This document shows positions 3,933 through 34,970 of a stretch of DNA of 34,970 bases, piece after piece (the first letter of the stretch is position 1; each line of letters opens with the position of its first letter). The position numbers and the translations under genes were made by a program. Source of the DNA: Candidatus Taylorbacteria bacterium RIFCSPHIGHO2_02_FULL_46_13 (lineage in GTDB: Bacteria > Patescibacteriota > Minisyncoccia > Phycocordibacterales > DSPV01); the NCBI GenBank assembly GCA_001821015.1, contig MHRQ01000012.1, forward strand, positions 3,459 to 38,428, written 5' to 3'. The notes below the pieces were generated by a model, which did not search any database, was not told the origin of the DNA, and saw nothing but the letters and a program-made list of their open reading frames with translations.

Positions 3933-3943
3933 TACCTGTCGAC

Positions 3944-4262: not shown

Positions 4263-4350
4263 TTATTGCCAAGCGAGTGAGTGGAGAGAAAAAGTATCTT
4301 CTTTTTCTCTCCCGAGCGAGCGATGGCAACAAAGGGTTTAATATCCTTTA
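4263..4350 (+). repeat. Intergenic hairpin repeat, copy 2
   Basis: About 5 differences from copy 1. Perfect internal 12-bp stem GGAGAGAAAAAG / CTTTTTCTCTCC. Starts 10 nt after the csoR stop. Confidence 0.9.
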
Positions 4351-4388
4351 TCAACTAAAATTATCAGTTAATCAATTTTTTAATCACG

Positions 4389-4604
4389 ATGAAAAAATCT
4401 TCTTTGATCCACGGTGTGTCTATGGTAACCGGTATTTGGGGTGCGCTTGCGCTCGTTGGAGCATGGCTTGCGGGTGAAACCGGAACTATCTTTGGGTTTA
4501 CACAACAGCACTGTTTCTTTGATGCGATCGTGCTTGAACTCATTTCTGTTTCTGCCGGTGTGTGCGCTTTGTATCGTCGTCAATTAGAGCGTGAAATCCA
4601 ATAA
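4389..4604 (+). CDS. Small two-TM membrane protein, unknown function
   Basis: 71-aa ORF between csoR and the ATPase on the same strand. Two hydrophobic helices, three Cys. Confidence 0.6.
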   Translation: MKKSSLIHGVSMVTGIWGALALVGAWLAGETGTIFGFTQQHCFFDAIVLELISVSAGVCALYRRQLEREIQ

Positions 4605-4612
4605 CAATTTCA

Positions 4613-6688: not shown

Positions 6689-6692
6689 ATGT

Positions 6693-7106
6693 ATGTATTC
6701 CACATCTAAACAAATTATCTCGGTGATGATCCTGATATCGTTCCTGACGATTGTGTTTCTAAGTGTTGTAGCCATGTTACATATGCCAGATGGAGATATG
6801 TCTGGCGACTGTCCATTCTCTGCACTAGGAGACTCGCTTTGTCCACAGGATGCGGTAACGGTTGCTCTCCACCACATATCTGCGTACCAGTCATTTTTCA
6901 ATGTGCCCGTTGGTTCGGGTCAGACGGCACTGATTATTTCCTTACTTCTTGCCACCTACGCGATGCTCGTAATCGGTATACGTTCTCCGTTACGTGGGCC
7001 GCCCGCTACTGTGCGTCTTGTCTATGGTTCTCCACCGGTTAATTCTTATGAAAGGAAAATAACTCGCTGGCTGTCTTTGTTTGAAAACAGCCCCTCTACC
7101 TACTAA
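6693..7106 (+). CDS. Membrane protein with a Met/His/Cys-rich loop, unknown function
   Basis: 137 aa, starts 5 nt after the copB stop. Loop MLHMPDGDMSGDCPFSALGDSLCPQD sits between hydrophobic helices. Confidence 0.6.
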   Translation: MYSTSKQIISVMILISFLTIVFLSVVAMLHMPDGDMSGDCPFSALGDSLCPQDAVTVALHHISAYQSFFNVPVGSGQTALIISLLLATYAMLVIGIRSPLRGPPATVRLVYGSPPVNSYERKITRWLSLFENSPSTY

Positions 7107-7166
7107 GAGCACTTAAAAAGTTCTGCTTTTTAAGTGCTCACGCTCGCGCCCGTTCGCGAGTTTTTT
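7107..7166 (+). terminator. Tandem hairpins ending the copper ATPase operon
   Basis: Perfect 14-bp stem GAGCACTTAAAAAG / CTTTTTAAGTGCTC (7107-7139). Then CTCGCG-loop-CGCGAG followed by TTTTTT (7143-7166). Confidence 0.7.
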
Positions 7167-7199
7167 CGTTTCTTATTCTTCTCATCTAATACAGTTCGT

Positions 7200-7718
7200 A
7201 TGAAACCAAAAACAATTGTTAACGTTCTCGTTGTCAGCTTTGTACTGATAGGTCTCTTTGTTTGGGGTTATACTCAGAAAGAAGCCACTACGGCATCCGT
7301 TCAGGGAGTTGGAGGGGCGTCCTCATCTAAAAGCGCTCTTGTGGTGTCTGAAACCATTTATGATTTTGGCACCATCTCTATGAAGGGTGGAGATGTCACT
7401 ACAGAGTTCACCATTACTAATCCGACCGACCGCGATATTATCATCAGCACGGTGGTTACCTCCTGTATGTGCACGACCGCGTTCATCGTAGATCCGAACG
7501 GGGGGGCTAAAGGTCCGTTCGGCATGCCCGGACACGGGGGGGCGGTACCGCCGGCCAATGAGATTATAAAAGCCGGTGAGAACCGCACCATCCGTGTCGT
7601 CTATGATCCCAATGCCCACGGTCCTGCGGGAATAGGTGCGATTGACCGTTTCGTCGTGCTGACTGACACATTAGGCGGCACGCTAGAGCTTGAGATAAAG
7701 GCGCTGGTAACTCCATAA
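7200..7718 (+). CDS. DUF1573 domain protein, N-terminally anchored
   Basis: YDFGTISMKGGDVTTEFTITNPTDRDIIISTVVTSCMCTT is the DUF1573 signature. Start moved to MKPKTIV at 7200, downstream of the terminators. Confidence 0.8.
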   Translation: MKPKTIVNVLVVSFVLIGLFVWGYTQKEATTASVQGVGGASSSKSALVVSETIYDFGTISMKGGDVTTEFTITNPTDRDIIISTVVTSCMCTTAFIVDPNGGAKGPFGMPGHGGAVPPANEIIKAGENRTIRVVYDPNAHGPAGIGAIDRFVVLTDTLGGTLELEIKALVTP

Positions 7719-7722
7719 CGGT

Positions 7723-8502
7723 ATGAAAAAACTTATTATCAGTATCGGGATAGTGCTTATTGCAATTCTTGGGATTGTGACGCTAAAATATAGCCCCGGG
7801 TTTTCGTCCTTTCTTTGGAGTGCAAGTCAGGGTGGAGTTTGGCTCTTGCCCTTAGTGGCCTTCTCGGCGCTTCTAGATAGCGTCCATCCGTGCTCGTTCT
7901 CAATCTTGCTCATCACCATCGCGTTTCTGTTTGGCCTGCAAATGACCAGAAGAAAGATTCTCCAGATTGGCGGGCTCTATATCGCTGGCATATTTGCAGC
8001 TTACTTCACGATCGGCATCGGCTTGTTACAGGTGCTCCATATCTTCAACACGCCGCACTTCATGGGCAAGCTGGGCGCGACGATGCTCATCCTATTTGGG
8101 CTTCTGAATCTTTTCGGTGCGCTTTTCCCAAAATTTCCGATCAAGCTCAAAATTCCGGACGCGGCACACCGCTCTATTGGCACACTCATCAATACAATCT
8201 CTCTGCCAGCAGCTTTTGCGCTTGGTCTGTTGGTCGGACTCTGTCAATTCCCCTGCATGGGTGGCCCGTATCTAATGGTTATTGGGCTTCTCCATGACCA
8301 GATGACATACTTCAAAGGTTTCGGCTACCTTGTCCTGTACAACGTAATTCTTGTTGCACCGCTCGTTGCGACTCTGTGGATTGCTGCCAATCCCGTACTT
8401 ATTGACCGTATCAAGGAGTGGAAACAGACCCAGATGAAAAATGTGCATCTCTACGCTGGCATCGCCATGATCATTATCGGCATCTTAGTGCTGTTCATCT
8501 AA
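7723..8502 (+). CDS. CcdA/DsbD-like transmembrane thiol-disulfide electron transporter
   Basis: 259-aa polytopic protein. Membrane-embedded Cys occur in HPCSFSIL and CQFPCMGGP, as in the cytochrome c biogenesis DsbD-type transmembrane region. Confidence 0.75.
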   Translation: MKKLIISIGIVLIAILGIVTLKYSPGFSSFLWSASQGGVWLLPLVAFSALLDSVHPCSFSILLITIAFLFGLQMTRRKILQIGGLYIAGIFAAYFTIGIGLLQVLHIFNTPHFMGKLGATMLILFGLLNLFGALFPKFPIKLKIPDAAHRSIGTLINTISLPAAFALGLLVGLCQFPCMGGPYLMVIGLLHDQMTYFKGFGYLVLYNVILVAPLVATLWIAANPVLIDRIKEWKQTQMKNVHLYAGIAMIIIGILVLFI

Positions 8503-8503
8503 T

Positions 8504-9010
8504 ATGAAATCAACAAATACAAAAAAGCCGTTCTCACTTGAAGAATTTATCGCAAAAATAGCAGTGGCCAGAAAAGAGGGTGGGGTTGATCTTTCCACTA
8601 CCGAGGACTTGAGTCTTGCGGTTATGAACCTGATCAGTCTTGAGGAACACTTTTTCTTCACGGCTATGAAAACGGGTAAGGACGAATATCATGACACCGC
8701 CACTGAGGTTCGGAGAATGCGTACGCAATTACTTGCCGAGCTTATGCCAGATCATGAGGGGGAGACATGGTGTGCATCAAAACATCTTCTCTCCGCTACC
8801 ATGCGATTAATTGAAGTTGGCAACAAATTGCAGTCGGAGGGAATGAAAGAAAAAGCGGGTGAGGTATTTAAGAAGGCCTACCATGTCTATTCCATTTTTT
8901 GGGCGCTTAAACTCAAATTAATAAGTGTCAAGAGCGTACCGAATGTATCCCCAGACAGTGTACGACTGGAAGATCTTGTGTCCAAGTTAGCAGATTGTTG
9001 TAAGGAATAA
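8504..9010 (+). CDS. Hypothetical soluble protein ending in a Cys-Cys motif
   Basis: 168-aa ORF, 1 nt after the previous stop. Predicted helical. C-terminus LADCCKE. No family recognised. Confidence 0.7.
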   Translation: MKSTNTKKPFSLEEFIAKIAVARKEGGVDLSTTEDLSLAVMNLISLEEHFFFTAMKTGKDEYHDTATEVRRMRTQLLAELMPDHEGETWCASKHLLSATMRLIEVGNKLQSEGMKEKAGEVFKKAYHVYSIFWALKLKLISVKSVPNVSPDSVRLEDLVSKLADCCKE

Positions 9011-9030
9011 TATGGCAACAAAATAAACAC

Positions 9031-10017
9031 ATGGAAAACGAAACACACGAAGAACTAAAAGAAATGGAGGGAAACAAACTGGCGGTTCCCATCAGTATCG
9101 TGATTGCCGGAATGATAATTGCTGCGGCGATGGTCTACAATAACGCGAATCGTATGCCGCAAACGCAAACGTTAAAAGATAGCGAAGCGCAAGAAAATGT
9201 CAGAGCGGCAGCAGCTTTGGAAGAGGCAGTGCTACCTTCGGACGGCAGTATCTTACCAGTGACGTGGGGCAATCTTGGCGCAAGACTTACGAGTGTTGGT
9301 GCGATTGACGCCGACAAATTCAAAGCGCTATACGATCAGAGAGGCGCATTCACCAATGAATACAAAAACCTACTCTTCGGGAACAATGACGGAAAACTGA
9401 AAATCACCAAAGAAAATGCCGGGTATCTCTTGAATCTATTTTGGGCGCTTGGCCTTGCAAGCAAAAATCCTATCTTGGAATCAGGAGAGATGACCAATCG
9501 GGCGTACGGCGGGCCGGAGAATTTTGCCTCAACCGGAGGTTGGACAGTCGCGGCCGGCAATCCGATGGATCACTACAGTCGGCACCTGTTTTTCTCGTTG
9601 ACAGAAGAACAACAAATAGTGGTGGACAAAGTATCACGAGGAATTTATCGGCCCTGTTGCGGCAACTCTACGCATTTCCCTGACTGCAATCATGGTATGG
9701 CAATGCTCGGCCTTCTTGAACTTATGGCTTCGCAGGGTGTTGGAGAGGAAGAAATGTATCAGACAGCATTAACCGTCAATTCGTATTGGTTTCCTGACAC
9801 CTATCTCACTATTGCACAATTCATGAAAGATAAAGGAGTTTTGTGGAAGGACGTACACCCGCAGGAAATGCTCGGCATAGACTATTCCAGTGCATCTGGC
9901 TACGCGTGGGTTTCCTCGCAAGTTCATGGGCAAGAGCAGCAGAGTGGAAGCGGGTGTGGGGTTGATACGGGGCAGTCTATTGCGGCACCTAAACAGCAAA
10001 GTGGATGTGGTGTATAA
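9031..10017 (+). CDS. N-terminally anchored Cys-rich protein, unknown function
   Basis: 328 aa with a TM anchor. Motif RPCCGNSTHFPDCNHGM. C-terminal repeat QQSGSGCGV ... QQSGCGV. Confidence 0.75.
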   Translation: MENETHEELKEMEGNKLAVPISIVIAGMIIAAAMVYNNANRMPQTQTLKDSEAQENVRAAAALEEAVLPSDGSILPVTWGNLGARLTSVGAIDADKFKALYDQRGAFTNEYKNLLFGNNDGKLKITKENAGYLLNLFWALGLASKNPILESGEMTNRAYGGPENFASTGGWTVAAGNPMDHYSRHLFFSLTEEQQIVVDKVSRGIYRPCCGNSTHFPDCNHGMAMLGLLELMASQGVGEEEMYQTALTVNSYWFPDTYLTIAQFMKDKGVLWKDVHPQEMLGIDYSSASGYAWVSSQVHGQEQQSGSGCGVDTGQSIAAPKQQSGCGV

Positions 10018-10021
10018 TGTA

Positions 10022-10164
10022 TGTCTATGATGGGATATGGATATGACAGTTGGGGCATGATGGGAGGGGTTGGAACATTTGGGGTTATCACTTGGTTGGC
10101 GGTAGTGGTGGACCTCGTTCTCCTCGGCATTTGGCTCTGGAAACAAATCAATAAAGGGCATTAA
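10022..10164 (+). other. Possible small Gly/Met-rich TM peptide split over two frames
   Basis: The ATG at 10022 reads MSMMGYGYDSWGMMGGVGT then stops at 10103-10105. The neighbouring frame reads GVITWLAVVVDLVLLGIWLWKQINKGH with its stop at 10162-10164. The junction is at a G4 run near 10081-10084. Confidence 0.3.
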
Positions 10165-10239
10165 ACCCTTTGTTGCCATCGCTCGCTCGGGAGAGAAAAA
10201 GAAGATACTTTTTCTCTCCGCTTACTCGCTTGGCAATAA
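10152..10239 (-). repeat. Intergenic hairpin repeat, copy 3 (inverted orientation)
   Basis: The reverse complement matches copies 1 and 2 along the full ~88 nt with a few substitutions. Confidence 0.9.
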
Positions 10240-10343
10240 ATAAGGAGGTTCCGCTTAATCCACCTAGTTCTTTATAACTGTGGATTGAGTTTCAACCTAC
10301 CTCTTGCTAAGATGTATAATATCTAGACGACGGCACTTTTGCT

Positions 10344-16760: not shown

Positions 16761-16885
16761 AGGATATTAAACCCCAGGGCAGAGCCCTAGACTCGTAAGG
16801 TACTCGCCCGAAGAGGGTTCGCCCTTACCCGCGCCTCTGGCGCGGGGTATTAAACCCTTTGTTGCCGTCGCTCGTTGGCAATAAA
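16759..16885 (-). repeat. Intergenic hairpin repeat, copy 4: central hairpin deleted, interrupted by a 73-nt GC-rich insert
   Basis: AAAGGATATTAAACCC (16759-16774), then the insert (16775-16847), then TATTAAACCCTTTGTTGCCGTCGCTCGTTGGCAATAAA (16848-16885). TATTAAACCC is present on both sides of the insert. Confidence 0.8.
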
Positions 16886-17022
16886 AACGCTCCGGATTTA
16901 CCAGCCCTAATTTTTTTTGTGGAACCTAAGCCTAAAGTGCCTGTGGGTAATTTTGTGTATATGCTCGGACTTGACATGTTATCATTAGACCATTATTTAC
17001 CTAGGTTAATATTTTTTATACT

Positions 17023-19965: not shown

Positions 19966-21102
19966 CTAGCCAAACGTGAAGGTATACGCATCTAAGCCGG
20001 GGGATTCAATCTGAAGTTCAAGCGTGTGTTGGCCCCACGCAGAATCTTCTACGAGGCGATAGAGACGGTTTTCTTGGATGGTCACATAGCCGTTTGCGTC
20101 CACATCTTTGCCGCGCATATTGGCGGGGAGCACTTCACCATCAAGCATCACTTTTGCGCGTAACGGTTTGTCAGCACTTGCAACAATAAATACTTTTTGT
20201 GCAGAATAGGGAAGAAGGATGCGCGCCTCGGCAGTTGAATTCGTGCTGTATTCTCTGGTTATATTCCACGTGCCTCCAAGATACAACAAATTAGGTAGAG
20301 GATTTGTCGGGATTGTAAGTGTCTGTGGTCCCTCAGTTGATTGTTTACCGTTTGCAAAGGATTCATTACGGAAAGCGCCAAAATAAATTTCAGCCGTGCG
20401 AGGTTTTGAAGCATCCACTTCCTCTCCTCTGACGGTTATTTGATCACGTGCGGTGGGCACTGTTTCTCCCAAGCGCTTAGCGCGCTCGGCTAAAAGCTCC
20501 TGAATTTTCTTTTCGGTCTGGTCGTACGCGCCTTCACCGATATGATCATCCACAATAAAGCCGTCTATGTCTATAAGAAAATGATGCGGCCAGTAGCGAT
20601 TGTTGTACGCGTGCCACGTGCCATAGTCGTTGTCTTGAACGACTGGATAGGTAACACCATATTCTTGTGTAGCTTTGACGACATTGTCCTTTACTTTTTC
20701 AAATTCAAATTCAGGTGTATGAATGCCGACAATTTCAAATCCCATATTTTTGTATTTTGCATACCAGCTGGTCAGGTAGGGAAGTGTTCGCAGGCAGTTG
20801 ATGCAGGAGTATGTCCAGAAATCAACCATTATCACTTTTTTACCTACGAGAGACCTGATCGTTATAGGCATATCATTGGTATTCACAAAACCTGAAGGAT
20901 TCGCAATTTCTATATATTTTTTGTATTTAAGAGCTTTCATGGCGATTTCGGATGCCGTTGCTGGGCTGATATTTTCCTCCTGTGGAGTAGGTGCGGTATT
21001 TACTCCAGTCGGACGGACCTTGCCTGATTCAAGAAAGACAATGGCGCCGATAATGCCGCCAATTACCAGGACCAACAGAATGTTGCGTGCAAGGCTTGTC
21101 AT
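19966..21102 (-). CDS. Anchored thioredoxin-like oxidoreductase with a DipZ-type C-terminal domain
   Basis: VDFWTYSCINCLRTLPYL (CxxC) and IVGIHTPEFEFEK resemble the thioredoxin part of DipZ. An extra ~170-aa C-terminal domain follows. Confidence 0.85.
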   Translation of the reverse strand: MTSLARNILLVLVIGGIIGAIVFLESGKVRPTGVNTAPTPQEENISPATASEIAMKALKYKKYIEIANPSGFVNTNDMPITIRSLVGKKVIMVDFWTYSCINCLRTLPYLTSWYAKYKNMGFEIVGIHTPEFEFEKVKDNVVKATQEYGVTYPVVQDNDYGTWHAYNNRYWPHHFLIDIDGFIVDDHIGEGAYDQTEKKIQELLAERAKRLGETVPTARDQITVRGEEVDASKPRTAEIYFGAFRNESFANGKQSTEGPQTLTIPTNPLPNLLYLGGTWNITREYSTNSTAEARILLPYSAQKVFIVASADKPLRAKVMLDGEVLPANMRGKDVDANGYVTIQENRLYRLVEDSAWGQHTLELQIESPGLDAYTFTFG

Positions 21103-21812
21103 TAGCGTGAAAGAAGAAGGCTATTCAGTAAGCTAAAACTTGCAATGCGTGCGAGGTCTCCGGTAAAAACAAGAATACCGATTACAATCAGAAGAATACC
21201 AAACACAATATTGATGTATTTCACGATGGGTGCAAAACGGTTAAGAAAATTAGATGCTTCGCCCGCAAAGATCCCCACGATAAGAAATGGAATACCGAGG
21301 CCGAGTGCATACGTCAGGAGCAAGGTAAAGGCAGAGCCGGGTTGCGTTGCTGCAAGGCCAAGTATTGCGCCCAGTGCCGCTCCGACGCAGGGTGTCCAGC
21401 CGGCCGCGAATGCTGTGCCAAAGACGAATGACGTGACGTGTCGCGAGGAGAATTTTTTCATCACGCGAAATTTATGGTCGCGCTCAAGGAAGGATACATG
21501 GATGAGCCCAGTCACATAGAGACCGAAGAAAATGATAATTGCGCCACCGACACGTGAGGCCCACATTTGCACGCTGTATGCAACATTCGCTAGGGAAGTG
21601 TTAAGGAGGACCCCCAGTAGTGCAAAGACTACTGAAAAGCCGAGTACAAAAAACAGTGCACTTAAAAACGTATCTTTCCGTTTGACCGGTGCGCCTCCGG
21701 CAGAAGATCCTGCAAGGTAAGCAAGAAATCCCGGAATAATGGGAAGTACGCAAGGAGAAAGAAACGATACAAGTCCTGCGATAAAGGCGACTGTGATTGA
21801 GAGTCCATTCAT
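21102..21812 (-). CDS. ccdA: Cytochrome c biogenesis-type thiol-disulfide transporter CcdA
   Basis: LSPCVLPIIPGFLAY and GWTPCVGAALGAIL motifs, six TM helices. TAATG overlap with the downstream thioredoxin-like gene. Confidence 0.9.
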   Translation of the reverse strand: MNGLSITVAFIAGLVSFLSPCVLPIIPGFLAYLAGSSAGGAPVKRKDTFLSALFFVLGFSVVFALLGVLLNTSLANVAYSVQMWASRVGGAIIIFFGLYVTGLIHVSFLERDHKFRVMKKFSSRHVTSFVFGTAFAAGWTPCVGAALGAILGLAATQPGSAFTLLLTYALGLGIPFLIVGIFAGEASNFLNRFAPIVKYINIVFGILLIVIGILVFTGDLARIASFSLLNSLLLSR

Positions 21813-21841
21813 AGATTGCTCTATAGTATACTATAGCTAAT

Positions 21842-22399
21842 ATGCAGTCCGAAAATTCTAAATTAGAAACAGCAGTATTTGGTGGGGGATGTTTTTGGTG
21901 TACTGAGGCGGTTTTTCAAATGCTCAAGGGGGTGGCATCAGTTATGCCAGGATATGCCGGTGGAACAAAGGAAAGCCCGACTTATGAGGAAGTATCTGGT
22001 GGGGCAACGGGGTACATAGAAGTGATAGAAATAAAGTATGATCCCACAGTCATTTCATTTGATGATTTGCTCGCAGTCTTTTTCAACCTCCATGATCCGA
22101 CTACTCTCAATCAGCAGGGAAATGATGTTGGCACACAATATCGCTCCGCTATTTTTTACACAACAGAGGCACAGAAACACTCTGCAGAGAAATTGATAAA
22201 AGAATTATCTGACGGGAAAGCATATGACAAGCCAATTGTTACGGAAGTGAAGCCCTTAGAGGCCTTTTATAAAGCGGAGGCGTATCACAAGGATTATTAC
22301 AAGCGCAATTCCGATGCCCCCTACTGCGAAATCGTTATTGCCCCGAAACTTGAGAAATTACAACGGAAATTTAGTGAGTTGTTGAATGAATCAAAATAG
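21842..22399 (+). CDS. msrA: Peptide methionine-S-sulfoxide reductase
   Basis: GGGCFWCTEAVF active-site motif and YHKDYY. Confidence 0.95.
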   Translation: MQSENSKLETAVFGGGCFWCTEAVFQMLKGVASVMPGYAGGTKESPTYEEVSGGATGYIEVIEIKYDPTVISFDDLLAVFFNLHDPTTLNQQGNDVGTQYRSAIFYTTEAQKHSAEKLIKELSDGKAYDKPIVTEVKPLEAFYKAEAYHKDYYKRNSDAPYCEIVIAPKLEKLQRKFSELLNESK

Positions 22400-22408
22400 A
22401 GGTCACGT

Positions 22409-22437
22409 TTGAAGTCAAATTGCCACTGGTTTATAAT
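22409..22437 (+). promoter_or_regulatory. Candidate promoter of the cupredoxin-like gene
   Basis: TTGAAG (22409-22414), 17-nt spacer, TATAAT (22432-22437). Confidence 0.45.
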
Positions 22438-22464
22438 AATGGCTTAACACTTAAAACTCATTTT

Positions 22465-22947
22465 ATGTCAAAAAATGCAATCGTTACTATTGTTGTCTTG
22501 ATTGTCCTCGTTATGTTTGGTTGGTTTTTGTTCTCTGGCAAACAAGCCGTTGCCCCTGTAGAAACAAACCAGGAGGTGGTGACAACACCTATGCCTGCCT
22601 CAAGTTCTACACCGGCGACATCGGAAATGATAAAGACGGAAATGATCACTTATACTGACGATGGATTCTCTCCATCGTTGGTAACCATAAAAGTTGGTGA
22701 TACGGTTGAATTTAAGAACGCAAGCTCGGTTGATTTCTGGCCAGCTTCTGCTATGCATCCTACACACACCGTCTATCCTGGTTCAGATATAAAGAAGTGT
22801 GACACATCAGCTGAGGCGGGGATCTTTGACGCGTGCAAGAACTATGCCCCCGGGGCTTCATGGTCATTTACGTTTACTAATAAAGGAACGTGGGCCTATC
22901 ACAATCACCTCAACTCCCGACAGTTTGGAAAGATTACCGTAGAATAG
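22465..22947 (+). CDS. Anchored cupredoxin-like protein
   Basis: Start set at MSKNAIV (ATG 22465). TIKVGDTVEFKN...WPASAMHPTH...WAYHNHL resembles a plastocyanin/EfeO-type cupredoxin fold. Confidence 0.65.
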   Translation: MSKNAIVTIVVLIVLVMFGWFLFSGKQAVAPVETNQEVVTTPMPASSSTPATSEMIKTEMITYTDDGFSPSLVTIKVGDTVEFKNASSVDFWPASAMHPTHTVYPGSDIKKCDTSAEAGIFDACKNYAPGASWSFTFTNKGTWAYHNHLNSRQFGKITVE

Positions 22948-22955
22948 AAACGACC

Positions 22956-23336
22956 GTGAATGAACGCACCCATTTGGTCTCGTTTCTCTTGCGCGTTGGT
23001 ATCGCGGTCGTATTTCTCTATGCCGCGATCGCTTCTTTCCTTGAACCAACGTCTTGGATCGGATATCTTCCCGGCTTCATGAGTGCGCAGAAAGTTGTCC
23101 CGGTTACCACCATTCTCTCGGCATTCTCGTTGTATCAACTTCTGCTCGCTGGCTGGGTCCTCTCAGGAAAAAAGACATTGTGGGCGGGACTCCTTGCCGC
23201 CGCGACCTTAGGCGCCATTATTATCACTAACATCAATCAACTAGACATCGTATTTCGCGATGTAGCTATCTTCTTTGCGGCGCTTGCGCTTTGCGCTCTT
23301 CACTATAAAGGTGATTTGCCTGCAAGAACCTTATAG
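22956..23336 (+). CDS. Four-TM membrane protein, DoxX-like
   Basis: GTG start at 22956, after the previous stop. LRVGIAVVFLYAAIASF resembles DoxX-type proteins. This is a weak call. Confidence 0.5.
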   Translation: MNERTHLVSFLLRVGIAVVFLYAAIASFLEPTSWIGYLPGFMSAQKVVPVTTILSAFSLYQLLLAGWVLSGKKTLWAGLLAAATLGAIIITNINQLDIVFRDVAIFFAALALCALHYKGDLPARTL

Positions 23337-23348
23337 GGTTTTTCTCAG

Positions 23349-23759
23349 ATGAGTTTCCTCGCCACATTTTTGGCCCTGTCCGTGCTTGGCAGCGTTAATG
23401 CGGGCTACATACTGGTCAAGCACCACCGAGAAGAACAGCTGGTCTGCCCCATCAATCATGATTGCACTATAGTAACCAAAAGTCGTTGGGCAGATATGCT
23501 TGGCATCCGCAATGAAGCACTCGGCGTCATTTTTTTCGGCCTTCTTTTTATTGCGACTCTGCTACTTCTGTATTATCCACCGTGGGCTCTGCTTATAAGC
23601 AAACTCCTCTTTGTTACGGCTCTCGTTGGTTTCCTGTATTCTCTGTTCCTGCTCTATCTTCAGGCCTTTGTAATAAAAAACTTCTGCTTGTATTGCATTG
23701 CGTCAGCATTTATTGCAACTCTGCTTTTCATTAACAGCTTTGCACTTCTAACGGGATGA
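23349..23759 (+). CDS. Vitamin K epoxide reductase (VKOR) family protein
   Basis: Loop cysteines CPINHDC and the membrane CxxC (CLYC), four TM helices. Confidence 0.85.
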   Translation: MSFLATFLALSVLGSVNAGYILVKHHREEQLVCPINHDCTIVTKSRWADMLGIRNEALGVIFFGLLFIATLLLLYYPPWALLISKLLFVTALVGFLYSLFLLYLQAFVIKNFCLYCIASAFIATLLFINSFALLTG

Positions 23760-24780: not shown

Positions 24781-26624
<1,844 letters not shown>

Positions 26625-26628
26625 GGAT

Positions 26629-27600
26629 TTACTGTGAAAGTGCCTCTCTACCGGCAGTAATTTCTGATAACTCCTTCGTAATCGCCGCTTGGCGGTTCTT
26701 ATTAAATTGGATATTGAGCGCCTCTGCAAGCTCCGCAGCATTATCCGATGCATTTTTCATGGCAATCATACGCGAGGAATGCTCGGAAGCATTCGCTTCA
26801 AGTATTGCGTGATAGACTTCCACGGCTAAAAATTTTGGAAGCAATCGCTCTAGCACATCCTTCGGGGAGGGTTCAAACTTAAGCACACCTTCTTTAACCC
26901 CAGCAAGTTCCATTGAGCGCGGTATGTTCGCGTAGCGCCCTTCAAGCGGGACAATTGAATCAACAATGGATTGGAGCGATTCTTCGGAGAAGGGAAGGAT
27001 GCTTCTGACAACGACTTCCTGTTTGAGTGCGGAGATAAAATTTGTGTAGACGAGTGTCACTTCATCGGTCTTCTTCTCCCCAAAAAGTTTTAATAGAAAA
27101 TCTGAAATTTTACGCGTTTCGTCAATTGCCCCGAAATCACCGGCGCCGAGAAATTCTCCGAGGATTGTGCGTCCACGCCGTGCAAAGTAGTCGCGCCCCT
27201 TCTTGCCAATCGCCACAATACTAACCTTTACTCCAGTATCAGACATTCTGATATTCTGCAGAATATCAGAATGTTCTAATTGGGAAATGAGTTTTTCCGC
27301 TTGCTTGATGACATTAGTATTAAACGAGCCTGCAAGTCCTTTATCGGAAGTGATGACCACCAGACACGAGTTTTTCACGGGGCGCTTTTGTACAAGCGGT
27401 GAGGCCGCGAGCGTTTGATCAGAACTCGCCCTGATTGCGCGTAATATTGAGAACGCAGTAAGCGCGTACGGCCGCGTCGCAATGGCAACGGCTTGGCTTT
27501 TGCGCATTTTGACCGCAGAGACAGCTTCCATCGCCCGCGTGATTTGGCGGATGTTTTTGGTGGAACGTATTCTGTTTTTTAATGCGCGTGAGCCTGCCAT
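26629..27600 (-). CDS. atpG: F1 ATP synthase gamma subunit
   Basis: N-terminal IKNRIRSTKNIRQITRAMEAVSAVKMRK and C-terminal NKNRQAAITKELSEI. Confidence 0.95.
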   Translation of the reverse strand: MAGSRALKNRIRSTKNIRQITRAMEAVSAVKMRKSQAVAIATRPYALTAFSILRAIRASSDQTLAASPLVQKRPVKNSCLVVITSDKGLAGSFNTNVIKQAEKLISQLEHSDILQNIRMSDTGVKVSIVAIGKKGRDYFARRGRTILGEFLGAGDFGAIDETRKISDFLLKLFGEKKTDEVTLVYTNFISALKQEVVVRSILPFSEESLQSIVDSIVPLEGRYANIPRSMELAGVKEGVLKFEPSPKDVLERLLPKFLAVEVYHAILEANASEHSSRMIAMKNASDNAAELAEALNIQFNKNRQAAITKELSEITAGREALSQ

Positions 27601-27638: not shown

Positions 27639-27917
27639 TTATATATTCTCAACGGAATTTCTGTTTCTGAATTTGCCGTAGAGCCAGCCAATGAAAATTC
27701 CTCCTACAATAAAAGCCAACAAGAATAAAAGAGAAAGTTTAGACGGTGTTCCCCCACCAATCATCACAGCGAAATTTCTTTGAAACGCGTCAAATCCGTA
27801 TAAAGGTAGACACTCTCCCAGACATTTCACTGGAGCGAAAAGTAACAGAATTCCCAACAATAATCCTGTTAATAAGCCATTAAGTCCTCCTCTCAGCCAG
27901 TATCTTTTCGTGGTCAT
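27639..27917 (-). CDS. Small membrane protein (92 aa) inserted between atpA and atpG
   Basis: Start at MTTKRYW (27917). Two to three hydrophobic helices and a CLGEC motif. No family recognised. Confidence 0.6.
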   Translation of the reverse strand: MTTKRYWLRGGLNGLLTGLLLGILLLFAPVKCLGECLPLYGFDAFQRNFAVMIGGGTPSKLSLLFLLAFIVGGIFIGWLYGKFRNRNSVENI

Positions 27918-27935
27918 TTTTAATTTTAAATTGTC
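27915..27935. repeat. Inverted repeat, right arm, flanking the 92-aa ORF
   Basis: CATTTTTAATTTTAAATTGTC. It includes the ORF start codon. Confidence 0.6.
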
Positions 27936-27959
27936 ATTTTGCATTTTGAGATTTGCATT

Positions 27960-29489
27960 TTACATTTGCCGCTTGAAATAGTGTTCTGCAAAATCTTTGG
28001 CTGCGGCCGAAAGAGCCTCGTCGCTCTCTTTGGCAAGCTCACCGGACATTCTCATATTCTGCAGAATGTTGGAATGTCGTTCGTGGAGGAATTTGATAAA
28101 TTCTTTTTCAAATCGCTGTACGTCTTTGACGTCAACGCCGTCCTGAAATCCACGTACTACCGAGTAGATGGAGGCCACTTGCTCTTCAAACGGCATGTTG
28201 TAGTACTGGTCTTGCTTGAGAAGTTCGGTGAGTCTGCGGCCGCGGTCAAGCTTTTTCTTTGTGCCTGCGTCTAGGTCTTGACCGAATTGCGCGAAGGCGG
28301 CAAGCTCACGGAACTGCGCGAGCTCTAATCGCATCGTGCCGGCCACTTTCTTCATAGCTTTTGTTTGTGCCGCCGATCCGACGCGCGAAACCGAGAGTCC
28401 GACGTTGAGCGCAGGGCGGACACCTTGGTAGAACAATTCTGGTTCAAGATAGATTTGCCCGTCGGTAATAGAGATGACGTTGGTTGGAATGTAGGCCGAG
28501 ACGTCGGAGAGCTGGGTTTCAATGATGGGGAGGGCTGTTAGGGAGCCTCCGCCATACTCTTTTGACATTTTAGCAGCGCGCTCCAAAAGGCGTGAGTGCA
28601 GATAGAAAATATCACCCGGATATGCTTCGCGGCCGGGTGGGCGGCGCAAGAGGAGCGAAATTTCGCGATAGGCGACGGCGTGTTTGGAAAGATCATCGTA
28701 CACAATAAGCGCATCCTTGCCCTGGTCCATAAAGAATTCACCGATAGCACAGCCTGTGTAGGGGGCGAGGTATTGCAAAGGAGCAGGAGCGGAGGCAGGA
28801 GCCGTCACGACAATGGTGTATTCCATCGCACCGTGTTTTTTGAGTTGTTCTACGATTTGCGCGACTTTAGATTCCTTTTGCCCGATAGCGACATAGATGC
28901 AGATTACTTTTTTTTCTTTACGCTGATTGATGATGGTGTCTATCGCGATAGAAGTTTTTCCGGTTTGGCGGTCGCCGATGATAAGCTCGCGCTGGCCACG
29001 ACCGATAGGAATCATGGCATCAATCGCTTTGATACCGGTATGCAAAGGTGAGTTGACTCCTGATCGTGTGATGACACCCGAGGCGATTTTCTCAAGCGGG
29101 TAACGCTTCATGGTCTCAGTCTTCCATGCGGGTCCGCCGTCAACGGGGTTGCCGAGTGCGTCAACGACGCGCCCGATGAGAGCTTCAGAAACTGCGACTG
29201 AAAGCACGTTTCCGGTGCCTTTAACCGTCTGGCCTTCGCGCACCGCGTCTTTTTCGCCGAGGATAACGGCCTTGAGAGACGATTCTTCCAAGTTGAGTGC
29301 CATGCCAAGCACTGGCTTTCCGCCGGTTTCAAATTCTATAAGCTCGGAATACATTACGGACGAAAGTCCACGGATTTCCGCGACGCCATCTCCGACGCGC
29401 ATGACCGTGCCGACATGTTCAAGTTTCGCACCGGTGGTAATACCGGCGATTTCGTCTTTGAGTTGTTTTATAATTGTGTCTTTGTCCAT
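27960..29489 (-). CDS. atpA: F1 ATP synthase alpha subunit
   Basis: GDRQTGKT Walker A and full-length similarity to alpha subunits. Confidence 0.97.
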
Positions 29490-30427: not shown

Positions 30428-30461
30428 TTCATTCTCAAATTCTTGAGAATTTGAGAATGAA
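30428..30461 (-). promoter_or_regulatory. 15-bp stem-loop in the atpE-atpF intergenic mRNA
   Basis: TTCATTCTCAAATTC-TTGA-GAATTTGAGAATGAA, a perfect inverted repeat directly after the atpE stop. Confidence 0.6.
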
Positions 30462-30466
30462 TGTGG

Positions 30467-30700
<234 letters not shown>

Positions 30701-30734
30701 TTACTAATAACGTACTAATAAATGCTTAGTCCCA

Positions 30735-30809
30735 GCTAGAATTCGGATGCGGAAAGACAAGATTCTTCTCTGTCCGCATCCTACTTCTAGCCACTGCCCA
30801 TTACAGTGG
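30735..30809. other. Structured element upstream of atpE (two hairpins)
   Basis: GCTAGAA-ttc-GGATGCGGA ...19-nt loop... TCCGCATCC-tac-TTCTAGC (30735-30791), then CCACTG-cccatta-CAGTGG. No U tract on either strand. Confidence 0.5.
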
Positions 30810-30911
30810 GATAACTAAAAACGTGCTCAACCACCTCGTTTGCCACTATCATACTGTATTTATGAATAGATTTCAACACACACATATGTTCCAATCGGCT
30901 TGTATGGTTTG

Positions 30912-30920
30912 TGCTAGAAT
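30912..30920 (+). promoter_or_regulatory. Extended -10 promoter element of the R-M gene
   Basis: TGCTAGAAT ends 6 nt before the ATG at 30927. No SD is present. Confidence 0.45.
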
Positions 30921-30926
30921 GAAACT

Positions 30927-33308
30927 ATGTCCAGAAATGAAAAGTGGACAGAGAATTTTGTCCGCAAAAGACTGGCTTCCGTTGGTATTACGGATGAGGG
31001 GGGCTTTGTGGTAGATGAACAAAAGAGCGATAATCCCCGCGTTGAGAAATTATTGAAAAGCGCAAGTAAATCTGGTAACAGTGTAGGCAAGCCGGAGTTT
31101 TTGATTTCTCACAAAAAGGCCAATAAAGATTTTCTGATAGTCATAGAGTGCAAAGCTTTGACCAAAAACCATGTTTCTGAGACCAGAGACCAATACAAAG
31201 ATTTTGCAGTTGATGGAGTGTTGTTGTATGCGTCGCATTTGGCAAAGGAGTTCAATGTAATTGCAGTTGCAGTCAGCGGGCAATCAGAGCAGGAAATAAA
31301 GATTGATACCTTTCTAAATCCAAAAGGGGTAGGATCGGCAACTGTTTTAACCGATGAAAAGAAAGTTCCAGTAAAGCAAGTTGTCTCTTGGGAGGACTAC
31401 ATACGTTATGCAACGTATGATGAAAATCTGGCGCAAGCGAGGAAAAGTGGTCTGAATAAGTTTTCACGCGACCTCCACGATTACATGCGCGATTATGCAA
31501 AAATCACAGAGGCGCAAAAACCACTCTTAGTCAGCGGGGTGCTTATTGCTCTCATGGAAGAAGGTTTTAGGAGAGCATATTCCACGTACGAGAAACAAGA
31601 CTTGGCGAAGAAGACCTTTGAAGTGATACGAGACAAAATTAAAAAGGCACAACTTGGTGCCAACCAAGAAGAAAAGAAAAAAGCGGTTATTAACGCGTTC
31701 AGTTTTATTGAGCACCACCCCGAACTTCAGAAATTTGATAAAAAGAGGAATGAATCTCCGCTTGCCCACATTGTGAGAGACATTGACGAGAAGGTGAGAC
31801 CTTTTACCCAAGACCCCAATCACTATGATTATGACGTCATCGGTAATTTTTATGGTGAGTTTATCCGCTATACAGGTGGAGACGGAAAAGGACTTGGTAT
31901 TGTTTTGACGCCGAAACACATCACGGACATGTTTGCCGACTTAGCAAAACTCAATAAAAATTCGGTTGTGCTGGATACATGTTGCGGAACCGGCGGATTT
32001 CTTATTTCTGCCATGAAAAAGATGACAGAGGGACTTGATGAGAGAGAGCAGGTAAAGATTCTTGAAAACTCGCTTTTCGGTGTTGAACAAGAGCCGAATA
32101 TGTTTGCGCTTGCCGTCTCTAACATGATTTTGCGCGGCGATGGCAAGACGAATTTATATCAAGGGGACTGTTTTGACGAGGAGATTTTCAAACAGGTGAA
32201 AGGAAAGGCGACCGCCGGATTCATTAATCCTCCGTTCTCACAGAGAGGCGATGATCGTCATGAGTGGAACTATGTCATTACCTTACTTGACGCGCTACAA
32301 AAAAATGCAACGGGTATCGTGATTGTCCCGATGCAACTTGCTATTGATCAAAACCAACTCCGTGAACGGCTCCTGAAAGAACATCGTTTGGAAGCAGTGA
32401 TGAGTATGCCAAATGACCTTTTTTATCCAATAGGGATTGTGTCCTGCGTTATGGTATTTACCGCCCATGTTCCACATGATAGTGATAAGCATCACGAGAC
32501 GTGGTTCGGTTCTTGGAAAGATGATGGGTTTAGAAAAGATCGTAATGAAGGTCGAATCCCTACATCTCGCTGGCTTGAGATCAGAGAAAAATGGATTGAA
32601 ATGTTTCGCCGAAAAGAGATTGCAGGCAAGAGTGTTTGGAAAAGAGTCGTTGTAAATGATGAATGGTGTGCTGAGGCATATCTAGAGACAGATTATTCTG
32701 TTTTAGACGATAAAGACTTCAAGCAGGTTGTTCTTACCTATATTGCCTATAAGGTTAGAGGTGGTAGTTTGTCTTTTGTTAAAGAATTTCTTGGTAAGTC
32801 GGCTAAGCAGAAATTAATATTTTCAGACCGTACATGGACATGGTTCAGGTATGAAGATTTGTTTGACGTAAAAATCGGAAAGAGTGTTGATTTAAACAAG
32901 CTTGGGCAATCAGAAGACGGCATAAATTATGTCGGTCGGACAGAAGAGAATAATGCTATAACCGCAAAGGTTTTGAATGACGGGAGTTTTATAGTGTACG
33001 AAGGAAATTGTATTACAGTGCCTATGGTTGGTAACGAGTTAAAGTCAAGTTACCAAACAGAACCATTTTGTGTCTCTCAAAACATCGCGATTTTGTACCC
33101 CAAAGGTTTTGCACTCAACCTGTATAACGCGCAGTTTCTTAATACCATTATCAGGAGAGATGCTTTTCGTTTTGCGTATGGAAGGACCTTGAGTTTGGAC
33201 AGATTGAGGATGTTGAAAATTAAACTCCCTGTAAGCAAAAAGGGAGATCCCGATTGGCAATTTATGGACGACTATATAAAATCTCTGTTGCATTCTTCTG
33301 CTATCTGA
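30927..33308 (+). CDS. Single-polypeptide restriction-modification enzyme: PD-ExK-like nuclease, gamma-class N6-adenine methyltransferase and one HsdS-type TRD (Type IIG/IIB-like)
   Basis: N-terminus PEFLISH..DFLIVIECK (D/E...ExK). Methylase motif I VLDTCCGTGGFL and motif IV GFINPPFS. C-terminal ~190 aa with an HsdS-like TRD (W.WFRYEDLFDVKIGKS...IKLPV...DWQFMDDYIKSL). Confidence 0.88.
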   Translation: MSRNEKWTENFVRKRLASVGITDEGGFVVDEQKSDNPRVEKLLKSASKSGNSVGKPEFLISHKKANKDFLIVIECKALTKNHVSETRDQYKDFAVDGVLLYASHLAKEFNVIAVAVSGQSEQEIKIDTFLNPKGVGSATVLTDEKKVPVKQVVSWEDYIRYATYDENLAQARKSGLNKFSRDLHDYMRDYAKITEAQKPLLVSGVLIALMEEGFRRAYSTYEKQDLAKKTFEVIRDKIKKAQLGANQEEKKKAVINAFSFIEHHPELQKFDKKRNESPLAHIVRDIDEKVRPFTQDPNHYDYDVIGNFYGEFIRYTGGDGKGLGIVLTPKHITDMFADLAKLNKNSVVLDTCCGTGGFLISAMKKMTEGLDEREQVKILENSLFGVEQEPNMFALAVSNMILRGDGKTNLYQGDCFDEEIFKQVKGKATAGFINPPFSQRGDDRHEWNYVITLLDALQKNATGIVIVPMQLAIDQNQLRERLLKEHRLEAVMSMPNDLFYPIGIVSCVMVFTAHVPHDSDKHHETWFGSWKDDGFRKDRNEGRIPTSRWLEIREKWIEMFRRKEIAGKSVWKRVVVNDEWCAEAYLETDYSVLDDKDFKQVVLTYIAYKVRGGSLSFVKEFLGKSAKQKLIFSDRTWTWFRYEDLFDVKIGKSVDLNKLGQSEDGINYVGRTEENNAITAKVLNDGSFIVYEGNCITVPMVGNELKSSYQTEPFCVSQNIAILYPKGFALNLYNAQFLNTIIRRDAFRFAYGRTLSLDRLRMLKIKLPVSKKGDPDWQFMDDYIKSLLHSSAI

Positions 33309-33310
33309 GA

Positions 33311-33424
33311 TTAGTGGGCTTCGGCGCGCGTGAATGAGGAGAAGGCAAGCATGGCGAGGACTGCAAAGATAATAGCCTGGATGAAGCCGATGAAATAAAG
33401 ATTGTTGAGCAAGTAAAATAAAAG
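33311..33424 (-). pseudogene. atpB: Relic 1 of an ATP synthase a-subunit (atpB) 3' end
   Basis: Encodes ...LLFYLLNNLYFIGFIQAIIFAVLAMLAFSSFTRAEAH then stop. This resembles the conserved last helix of subunit a (..IQAFIF..LT..Y....). No start codon. A terminator lies immediately upstream. Confidence 0.65.
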
Positions 33425-33497
33425 TCCTGCAACTGTAGGACTTTTATAAGCGAGGTGCACCTTTCTAGCGCCGTAGGTGAGAAAAAAACGCAAGCAT

Positions 33498-33529
33498 AAA
33501 AAAACGGCACACAATTTTGTGCGTGCCGT
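33498..33529 (-). terminator. Rho-independent terminator of the two-gene cassette
   Basis: Minus strand: ACGGCAC-12-nt loop-GTGCCGT followed by TTTTTTT. Confidence 0.65.
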
Positions 33530-33546
33530 GTGTAGCGAACACCAAC

Positions 33547-33738
33547 TCATCTCGCGTGGTGGTTACTAATGGTTACCAAGGTGAATGCCCATGCGAGCAG
33601 GCCCGCAATGATAAACATCATGATAGTCCACATGATCGCTTTTATGGGGTACATCCTCCGGCGGTGCTCGATTTCTTCATCAAGGTAGTCAAGCGCCGAG
33701 TTTTCTTTTGGGTGCTGAACTGTATCGTTTGTTTGCAT
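33547..33738 (-). CDS. Small single-TM protein (63 aa)
   Basis: The ATG at 33738 is preceded by AAGGGGGGG. Hydrophobic helix IMWTIMMFIIAGLLAWAFTLV. Confidence 0.6.
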   Translation of the reverse strand: MQTNDTVQHPKENSALDYLDEEIEHRRRMYPIKAIMWTIMMFIIAGLLAWAFTLVTISNHHAR

Positions 33739-33757
33739 TTTCCCCCCCTTCTTAATT

Positions 33758-34228
33758 TTATGGGTTAATGAGGTTGGCCACCAAAAGGTAAAGCCATAGC
33801 AAAAAGAGAATCGCGTACACAATCGTAAGTCCATCTATCCCCCGCGCGATTTTCCTGACGCCTTGAGGCAGGAAAAATTCTTCCGTGAGGCGATGGAAAA
33901 ATCCATCTATCGCACCGAAGCTGAACTCAAGCTCTGTGCCACGCCGCATAGTTTTCAGCAAGAACATGACGGTTCGCTCTTCTATCCACATGATGGCAAT
34001 GGTAGTATGTAGACCGACAAGTGCAATGATAAGTGCTCCCGCTCCTTTTCCCGTCGTGGCTTTTCCTACCTGCATGTAAAAAGTGAACAATGCTGATTGA
34101 AGCCCTACGGCAAATGCCGCCACAATAAAGCGCAGACTCGCAAAGAATTTCCAAGCCTCCGCTACCACACCGTACTCCGTACGGAAGTTTTCCTGCCGAT
34201 TCTCATCCGTACTTTTTCCGTTACTCAT
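33758..34228 (-). CDS. Membrane protein (156 aa), unknown function
   Basis: AAAGGAG lies 6 nt upstream of the ATG. Three to four hydrophobic helices. No family recognised. Confidence 0.7.
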   Translation of the reverse strand: MSNGKSTDENRQENFRTEYGVVAEAWKFFASLRFIVAAFAVGLQSALFTFYMQVGKATTGKGAGALIIALVGLHTTIAIMWIEERTVMFLLKTMRRGTELEFSFGAIDGFFHRLTEEFFLPQGVRKIARGIDGLTIVYAILFLLWLYLLVANLINP

Positions 34229-34282
34229 TAGTAGCTCCTTTCTAGGTTTTCAAAGGACAAAGTCCTCTCTCTTTCTGCGCGA

Positions 34283-34311
34283 AGAATACCCGCAGGGGTA
34301 TAGTTTGTCAA
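34283..34311 (-). promoter_or_regulatory. Promoter with an embedded CsoR-type operator, driving the two-gene cassette
   Basis: Minus strand: TTGACA (34311-34306), 17-nt spacer, TATTCT (34288-34283). The inverted repeat ATACCC-N4-GGGTAT (34286-34301) fills the spacer and overlaps the -10 box. Confidence 0.6.
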
Positions 34312-34434
34312 ATACCCAGGATGTCAGTAAGTTAGTGTGCTTCAGCGCGGGCTTGCCCGTTCGGATTCTCAACGCACTCTCACTAAAGCGAACAGGGTGT
34401 GTCCGTTACAAGAGCGGTGTTTGGTACGCTAGTG

Positions 34435-34552
34435 TTAATGTCCAGAATCCGTTCGGGTGAAGGAGGAGAACGCGAGCATGGCGAGGACTGCAAAGATAAT
34501 AGCCTGGATGAAGCCGATGAAATAAAGATTGTTGAAGAAGTAAAATAAAAAG
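34435..34552 (-). pseudogene. atpB: Relic 2 of an atpB 3' end (direct repeat of relic 1)
   Basis: Encodes ...FLFYFFNNLYFIGFIQAIIFAVLAMLAFSSFTRTDSGH then stop. An in-frame stop lies upstream at 34576-34578. A 61-nt core is identical to relic 1. Confidence 0.65.
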
Positions 34553-34560
34553 TGATTCGT

Positions 34561-34589
34561 TTGCTTAGCGTAAATTTATTTGCTATTAT
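34561..34589 (+). promoter_or_regulatory. Candidate promoter of the DUF5678-like gene
   Basis: TTGCTT, 17-nt spacer, TATTAT. The -10 box ends 6 nt before the ATG. No SD. Confidence 0.45.
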
Positions 34590-34595
34590 AGCTGT

Positions 34596-34790
34596 ATGGC
34601 AAAAGATTGGACTAAAATATTTAAGAAATACAAGGGTCTTTGGGTTGCTCTTGCTGATGATGAGGAAACTGTGCTTGGGGCAGGAAAAACCCTCAAAGAG
34701 GCTTTTGAATTAGCGAAGAAAAAAGGTTATAAAGAACCCATAATGACTCGTATGCCAGAGGAGATAGTCTCCTTTGTCGGTGCGTTATGA
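34596..34790 (+). CDS. DUF5678-like small protein
   Basis: KYKGLWVAL.DDEETVLGAGKTLKEAFELAKKKGYKEPIMTRMP is the pattern I associate with DUF5678 proteins. Confidence 0.7.
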   Translation: MAKDWTKIFKKYKGLWVALADDEETVLGAGKTLKEAFELAKKKGYKEPIMTRMPEEIVSFVGAL

Positions 34791-34970
34791 AGTTTAACTA
34801 TAAGCGTTACGGTCACGTACTGCGTCCGGTTATTCCAATTAAGCTGTTGCACGCTGACAAGTCGGTCAACTACGAGGTGTTGGTAGATTCTGGTGCTGAT
34901 TTGTGTTTGTTTGAAGCCGAACTCGCAGAATTTTTAGGTATTGAAGTTAGTAAAGGATTGGCCAAAGAAG
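34787..34970 (+). CDS. Retropepsin-like aspartic protease, N-terminal part (runs off the window)
   Basis: ATGA overlap with the previous gene. MKFNYKRYGHVLRPVIPIKL...YEVLVDSGADLCLF carries the DSGA catalytic motif. Confidence 0.7.
   Translation, partial: MKFNYKRYGHVLRPVIPIKLLHADKSVNYEVLVDSGADLCLFEAELAEFLGIEVSKGLAKE

Follow-up and report, generated by a model that had tools for sequence, protein, structure and literature searches.

The window analysed here (the whole stretch of 34,970 nucleotides) contains two promoters with a CsoR-like palindrome between the −35 and −10 hexamers, and the question is whether the second of them, 30 kb away from csoR on the minus strand, brings a two-gene membrane cassette under copper control. 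The first-pass annotation had described both promoters, had noted that the second is followed by genes for a 156-aa polytopic and a 63-aa single-TM protein and then by a terminator of their own, and had suggested that, if the second operator is real, the cassette belongs to the copper regulon. Direct reading of both promoters bore this description out and, for the cassette, the promoter scan, open reading frames, hydropathy and terminator scan agreed with it. The regulatory claim stood in part: copper control of the cassette appears plausible, though unproven, as the half-sites are perfect, yet lie one base closer together than in 83 natural sites.

The cassette promoter and its palindrome

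The cassette promoter (Table 1) was recovered independently by the promoter scan, with 10 of 12 consensus positions matched. Its 17-nt spacer, AACTATACCCCTGCGGG, contains ATACCCCTGCGGGTAT (34301-34286). This palindrome begins four bases past the −35 hexamer and runs through the rest of the spacer to the third base of the −10 hexamer, with its right half merging into the latter.

The site shares several features with the type-2 CsoR operators of Streptomyces lividans csoR and copZA, B. subtilis copZA, S. aureus and L. monocytogenes (PMC3902906). A TAC triplet (34300-34298) and a GTA triplet (34289-34287) form the inverted dyad; inner C/G tracts of at least three bases (CCCC...GGG) and AT-rich flanks (TATA and TATT) are present, the right tract being near the natural minimum; the core promoter is overlapped in the same register as at natural sites; and a cognate csoR with a canonical site is found in the same genome. 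Unlike these operators, the cassette site has its dyads 8 bp apart (TAC-X8-GTA) instead of 9 (TAC-X9-GTA), arms of 6 bp instead of 8-10 bp, a right G-tract of just GGG after C, and targets that are not copper efflux or chaperone genes. An X9 register can be ruled out, since the left triplet would become ATA. The earlier statement that the two promoters have the same architecture therefore needs qualification: both carry a palindrome within the promoter spacer, but the csoR palindrome is X9 with 10-bp arms and the cassette palindrome X8 with 6-bp arms.

Two further elements were seen around the promoter. The additional GGGTAT abutting the −35 hexamer lies 26 nt upstream of the operator's own GGGTAT and may be due to chance or provide an auxiliary contact. 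Orthologous cassettes (53-72% identity) share a leader motif, TTTGA(A/C)AAC (34246-34254 in the window), ~20 nt ahead of the start codon; it may be a second regulatory element. The sequence of the locus was confirmed at low depth by DNA contigs from four groundwater runs, which gave no further information on the operator; no RNA run contained the locus.

Table 1. Positions in the window of the features discussed in the text (L006, L008 and L010 are orthologous cassette loci; PWM, position matrix of natural CsoR sites)
Feature	Position	Strand	Evidence and remarks
−35 hexamer TTGACA, cassette promoter	34306-34311	−	direct reading and promoter scan; invariant in the orthologous promoters L006, L008 and L010
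Palindrome ATACCC-CTGC-GGGTAT (TAC-X8-GTA), CsoR-like putative operator	34286-34301		direct reading, pattern count and PWM
−10 hexamer TATTCT, overlapping the right half-site GGGTAT	34283-34288	−	TAT-CT invariant in orthologs
Additional GGGTAT half-site abutting the cassette −35	34312-34317	−	direct reading
Cassette 5' UTR, 54 nt, with conserved motif TTTGAAAAC (34254-34246) and RBS GAAAGGAG (34242-34235)	34229-34282	−	direct reading and ortholog comparison
156-aa three-TM protein, RBS GAAAGGAG	33758-34228	−	ORF and hydropathy
63-aa single-TM partner protein, own G-rich RBS	33547-33738	−	ORF and hydropathy; position downstream of the 3-TM gene conserved
Intrinsic terminator closing the cassette unit, 10-bp stem then T-run	33497-33529 (hairpin 33529-33504)	−	direct reading and terminator scan
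atpB 3'-end fragment A, upstream repeat copy	34454-34550	−	with ~150 nt of atpB downstream tail; precedes the cassette promoter
atpB 3'-end fragment B, downstream repeat copy	33327-33423	−	94% identical to A
Accessory module: DUF5678 and aspartyl-protease pair	between atpB and atpE		
Accessory module: membrane cassette, 1.1 kb	between atpB and atpE		
Accessory module: fused HsdM/HsdS-type methyltransferase	between atpB and atpE		
csoR promoter TTGCAA-17-TATACT with canonical operator ATATACCCCCTGGGGGTATAT (3949-3969, TAC-X9-GTA)	3944-3972	+	direct reading; PWM 32.7 bits
csoR, CsoR-family repressor, 90 aa, x-C-H-H fingerprint (Cys33 and two His of NHLETH)	3981-4253	+	PF02583 match
CopB-type P1B ATPase, CPH motif, N-terminal HMBD	4613-6688	+	scores above the TIGR01511 cut-off

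The csoR locus

At the csoR promoter, a 17-nt spacer separates TTGCAA (3944-3949) from TATACT (3967-3972), and the palindrome ATATACCCCC-T-GGGGGTATAT has perfect 10-bp arms. The product of csoR matched PF02583 at 1.2e-26, and its Cys and both His ligands are invariant in 29 CsoR orthologs (56-74% identity, all on Patescibacteria-type metagenome contigs). Next to it lies an ATPase gene (4613-6688) whose transmembrane CPH motif we take to mark the CopB-type subgroup.

A Cu(I)-sensing CsoR is recognised by the PF02583 fold, x-C-H-C or x-C-H-H ligands and an adjacent copper efflux gene, all of which were found here. Given the x-C-H-H fingerprint and the adjacent CPH-containing ATPase that matches TIGR01511 (copper-translocating ATPases), copper is well supported as the metal, and the assignment of the regulator as a predicted copper-type CsoR is likewise well supported. 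In published work, the x-C-H-H fingerprint defines a Cu(I)-sensor cluster with Thermus thermophilus CsoR as its type (PMC8643695); the protein of the window resembles this cluster in having Cys-His-His at X-Y-Z, no N-terminal His of RcnR and a copper P-type ATPase adjacent. Unlike in T. thermophilus, whose operator CCCCACCCCACCTGGGGTGGGG (PMC10318464) differs from the ATACCC/GGGTAT used here, the ATPase is of CopB type (CPH) and no CopZ was seen.

Natural CsoR sites in related Patescibacteria

As a reference, we used 80 related Patescibacteria csoR loci collected in one metagenome scan with a CsoR alignment. An operator was located just upstream of csoR in 77 of them, and most of these operators are visibly flanked by a −35 resembling TTGACA, three or four bases ahead of ATACCC, and by a −10 into which GGGTAT usually merges (e.g. 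TTGACA-TCA-ATACCCCACGGGGG-TATAAT). The distance between TAC and GTA was X9 in 74 of the 77 autoregulatory operators and X10 in three; none was X8. The three X10 sites indicate that CsoR spacing is not absolutely fixed. The csoR loci also contained six secondary promoter-embedded sites, all X9, which precede two CopB-type ATPases, a second csoR and several small or membrane proteins; one locus (L068) has two csoR paralogs, both with X9 sites. Together, the 83 natural promoter-embedded sites comprise 80 X9, three X10 and no X8.

These sites agree with the published type-2 consensus, ATATACCCCTNAGGGGTATAT (TAC-X9-GTA), which is common to Streptomyces, Staphylococcus, Listeria and Bacillus operators (PMC3902906) and had been given correctly in the first pass. 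CsoR no longer binds once any base of the TAC/GTA triplets is swapped (PMC3902906). For TTHA1953, another protein of the CsoR family, removal of one base between the repeats lowered the affinity ~15-fold and did not abolish binding (PMC10318464).

Comparison of the cassette site with natural sites

A position matrix (PWM) was built from the 74 natural X9 autoregulatory sites, which show no variation in ATACCC and GGGTAT (148 of 148 half-sites). Natural X9 sites score 20.2-33.3 bits, and the csoR site of the window, at 32.7 bits, is near the maximum; no other X9 site in the window exceeded 1 bit. The cassette site scores −3.4 bits in the X9 register and 25.4 bits if one central base is inserted. 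Its left half-site is typical (14.0 bits versus a natural median of 14.6), whereas the right one is weak (8.5 bits; natural right halves start at 7.4 and have their 10th percentile at 11.8) because it reads CGGGTAT instead of GGGGTAT. The cassette site thus consists of two good half-sites in the natural promoter position, one base too close. The claim that both sites fit the CsoR type holds for the half-sites, which are those invariant in the 74 natural operators, and for the promoter register; it fails for the X8 spacing of the cassette site, found in 0 of 83 natural sites.

We then asked how often such a motif would arise by chance. TACCC-N3-7-GGGTA occurs exactly twice in the 34,970 bases, in the csoR promoter and in the cassette promoter, against a mean of 0.04 in shuffled sequences (none of 100 shuffles reached two), and this result supports the earlier description of the sequence. 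The strict X8 form, TACCC-N4-GGGTA, was also counted in 693 kb of related DNA, where it has three copies, all of them inside long ORFs (244-401 codons) and without a promoter. The resulting empirical background of ~0.15 X8 sites per 35 kb is above the shuffle estimate, so bare X8 palindromes are not vanishingly rare.

The unusual feature is the placement within a core promoter, not the X8 palindrome itself. As the TAT of the right half is set by the −10 hexamer, nine free bases of the 17-nt spacer must match; by our own arithmetic, with three spacings allowed, the chance of a palindrome in this placement is ~1e-5 per promoter, ~3e-4 over the promoters of the window and <1e-2 for a 1-Mb genome. 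The rarity of this placement makes it more likely that the palindrome was selected than that it is accidental.

Orthologous cassettes

Three orthologous loci (L006 at 72% identity, L008 and L010 at 53%) keep TTGACA, TAT-CT and the leader motif, and conservation of the −35, the −10 and the leader over this range shows that the cassette promoter is real; the cassette would accordingly be transcribed from its own predicted sigma-70-type promoter. The palindrome is absent from all three orthologous promoters, whose spacers are unrelated. Homologs of ~43% identity have neither the promoter nor the palindrome; the order of a 3-TM gene followed by a small 1-TM gene is kept down to this level, where the pair lies 3' of a histidine-phosphatase gene. 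A site of a CsoR regulon would be expected upstream of orthologs in relatives with a csoR of their own; judged on promoter sequences alone, such conservation was not found.

All contigs with the palindrome (L007, L009 and L095-L099) belong to one population with identical DNA, and X8 is present in all copies. Within this lineage, canonical ATACCC and GGGTAT have arisen in the promoter spacer, the right one merged with the −10. Its absence from the orthologous promoters marks the palindrome as lineage-specific, and by this comparison it is recent and has left no separate phylogenetic footprint; such a distribution neither proves nor excludes function.

Co-occurrence of the gene pair with csoR had been raised in the first pass as a check. 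As far as gene neighbourhood goes, the two were never neighbours in 94 related loci: none of the 80 csoR orthologs has a cassette homolog within 10 kb, and no csoR lies within 6-10 kb of any cassette homolog.

The cassette proteins

Hydropathy placed TM segments at residues 28-52, 61-84 and 127-156 of the 156-aa protein and at 29-59 of the 63-aa protein. The remark that neither is rich in Cys, Met or His was correct: Cys is absent from both, His occurs two and four times in the 156-aa and 63-aa proteins, respectively, and Met five times in each. Composition and hydropathy revealed no copper-related features in either. By composition, the cassette proteins are predicted not to be metal binders, which leads us to guess at a membrane or envelope role.

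The 156-aa protein contains the conserved motifs EY..V...KFF.SLRF, IE.RT, RGTELEF and GFFHR. It has 16 close relatives in the indexed database, all unnamed proteins, and those assigned to a named assembly belong to Candidatus Saccharibacteria or Patescibacteria MAGs. When 1.84 billion representatives were searched with a profile, ~200 relatives were retrieved at E <= 1e-3, most of 140-190 aa, with Y19, R33, R85, E101 and W145 in common. Neither cassette protein matched a family in Pfam, NCBIfam, PADLOC or PHROGs. Weak matches to Pfam PF24838 (8xMP, an octameric membrane protein family) were obtained from 46 of 102 family members at E <= 1, the best at 2e-9. Like 8xMP, proteins of the cassette family are small, helical and membrane-spanning; unlike true members, the protein of the window scores 10.9 bits (E = 0.43), far under the gathering score of 30 bits. 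On these profile matches, it represents an unnamed family that appears distantly related to 8xMP, for which our literature search on function found no paper.

In an AlphaFold2 model of the 156-aa protein (pLDDT 77, pTM 0.65), two long helices are accompanied by a TM helix at the C-terminus. Searches of the PDB with the model (Foldseek) and with a profile against PDB sequences returned generic helical bundles only, none of them significant. Assignment to SLATT, holin or defence effector families was rejected, as these gave single weak matches (SLATT_3 in one member, Phage_holin_3_6 in five of 102 and PycTM in one), and the domain fusions of distant members, one histidine methyltransferase and one DUF4440, were uninformative.

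Genomic setting

The population occurs in groundwater and soil metagenomes. In the window, atpE-F-H-A-G-D lie on the minus strand (30685-24781, with atpE at 30685-30467), and a contig that runs past the window (L095) carries atpI, an ArsR-type HTH gene and an intact atpB just beyond 34970. The ATP synthase operon is split (window 30686-34970; L095 10560-12568) by ~4.6 kb of accessory DNA between atpB and atpE, made up of three modules (Table 1). The cassette is bracketed by 97-nt direct repeats that correspond to the last ~20 atpB codons, with a shared 29-nt non-atpB arm in front, and copy A is followed by the same ~150-nt tail as the 3' end of the real atpB. The flanking duplicated atpB ends and the neighbouring modules identify the cassette as an accessory module in an insertion hotspot, a status that fits a lineage-specific promoter variant.

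Some elements insert at the 3' end of conserved genes, such as those for tRNA and tmRNA, and leave a duplicate behind. The modules resemble these in lying between direct repeats of the atpB 3' end with the gene itself intact, and they differ in that the target is protein-coding and part of the atp operon, that no integrase or recombinase gene was seen near the modules, and that these measure just 1-2.5 kb. The arrangement looks like repeated insertion at the atpB 3' end, and the duplicated atpB segment of ~200 nt would fit Campbell-type homologous insertion as well as site-specific integration.

In one contig (L007; 452-458 versus window 34136-34020), the cassette lacks 117 nt in frame, and with them TM1 and part of TM2, and atpB is joined straight to the cassette. 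We do not take this contig, which may be a real variant or a repeat-collapse assembly and has this deletion, as proof of a strain with such a junction.

Candidate regulation of the cassette

We tentatively read the cassette palindrome as a weak, non-canonical CsoR operator that would make the cassette copper-derepressible, an interpretation that we hold to be possible and somewhat short of probable. Apo-CsoR from the gene 30 kb away would bind the palindrome and block RNA polymerase; Cu(I) would release it, and the two membrane proteins would be made alongside the CopB pump under copper stress. Because the dyads are separated by 8 bp instead of 9, CsoR should bind less tightly here than at its own promoter, and the operator would be leaky or released early. 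For CsoR speak the two motif copies against 0.04 expected, the match at 12 of 12 half-site positions and the score of 25.4 bits with one base added; against it speak the X8 spacing, the weak right half-site, its absence from orthologs, the lack of any neighbourhood with csoR and the absence of copper features in the proteins. Membership of the cassette in the copper regulon, as first suggested, is a reasonable hypothesis: the promoter, the half-sites and a predicted copper-type CsoR favour it, while the spacing, the orthologous promoters and the distance from csoR do not. A more far-reaching version strikes us as rather unlikely. It would have CsoR recruiting a membrane cassette inserted in the atp operon through a one-base-compressed, low-affinity operator with a copper threshold unlike that of the pump, and would give the ~200-member 3-TM family its first functional handle (copper or envelope stress).

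Part of the same evidence would suit a palindrome that is nonfunctional for CsoR, either a decayed X9 site minus one base or a chance or neutral spacer in an effectively constitutive promoter. X8 is never used at natural CsoR sites, the strict X8 copies inside ORFs imply that such palindromes arise without function, orthologous promoters work with unrelated spacers, the cassette has no genomic association with csoR, and the ungapped score is negative. We nevertheless regard this as a somewhat unlikely account, because a full half-site match in a core-promoter spacer and in the natural register has the low chance calculated above, and because decay requires a former X9 site, which no ortholog has. 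A different DNA-binding protein, such as a second CsoR-family paralog with another spacing or an unrelated dimeric regulator, might also read the X8 palindrome. The small genomes of Patescibacteria are expected to encode few regulators, which counts against such a protein, as do the X9 sites of both L068 paralogs and the lack of a second CsoR-type regulator within the window. The ArsR-type regulator near atpB was rejected as the binder, having a different palindrome, CCATTCGTACGAATGG, of its own. For a separate protein speak the presence of two csoR paralogs in one related locus, the conservation of X8 across all copies of this population, and the precedent of CsoR-family paralogs that use different TAC/GTA spacings in one cell without cross-talk (TTHA1953 with TAC-N4-GTA, unlike TtCsoR; PMC10318464); on balance, we judge it improbable. 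A role of the palindrome in cassette mobility, as a recombination or other DNA-level site, would suit a 1.1-kb module between duplicated atpB 3' ends in an insertion hotspot, and is made very improbable by the position of the palindrome exactly between −35 and −10, by repeat junctions ~150-250 nt away in the atpB fragment, and by the lack of a recombinase gene near the cassette.

If CsoR does bind the cassette site, a CsoR regulon of the little-studied Patescibacteria would gain a target that is neither efflux pump nor chaperone, the otherwise rigid TAC-X9-GTA geometry would prove to tolerate compression by one base in vivo, and a testable condition, copper, would be attached to an uncharacterised membrane-protein family. 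If it does not, the site would serve as a negative control in which two perfect promoter half-sites are insufficient without the right spacing, which bears on motif-based regulon prediction. Either outcome would be incremental within a well-known regulatory system.

Other features of the window

The region 3' of copB (6693-10017) encodes a 137-aa protein, a DUF1573 Ig-like protein, a weak SfLAP-like membrane protein, and 168-aa and 328-aa proteins. These genes are likely co-transcribed with copB, and their products may be further copper-related envelope proteins. A thiol/redox cluster (19966-23759), near which no CsoR-like site was seen, encodes a DsbD-type membrane protein, a thioredoxin-like protein, MsrA, a weak cupredoxin-like protein and VKOR.

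A repeat of ~93 nt with internal hairpins occurs at 3845-3937, 4263-4356, 10150-10240 (inverted) and 16845-16887 (partial). Direct copies lie either side of csoR, and 96%-complementary inverted copies bracket the cop cluster (4352-10150). The repeat could be a MITE/REP-like element or a sign of mobility of the cop cluster; a reading as integron attC sites was rejected, as the arms are partly direct, not inverted.

In the atp operon, the 86-aa ArsR/HTH_5-type gene lies between atpI and atpB, and its perfect palindrome occurs upstream of both this gene and atpB (L095 11581 and 12018), which suggests that the protein may be a dedicated repressor of the operon. Two unannotated ORFs were noted, one of 199 aa between atpD and atpG (26154-26753; 156 aa in L095) and one of 101 aa, with no Pfam match, between atpG and atpA (27639-27944). 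A 33-nt palindromic repeat (GACATTCTGATATTCTGCAGAATATCAGAATGT and variants) is found inside the atpG ORF (27242-27274), inside the atpA ORF (28045-28077) and just 3' of atpE (30428-30460). The last copy has ~500x depth and many different flanks in metagenome contigs, and the repeat is therefore widely dispersed in that community.
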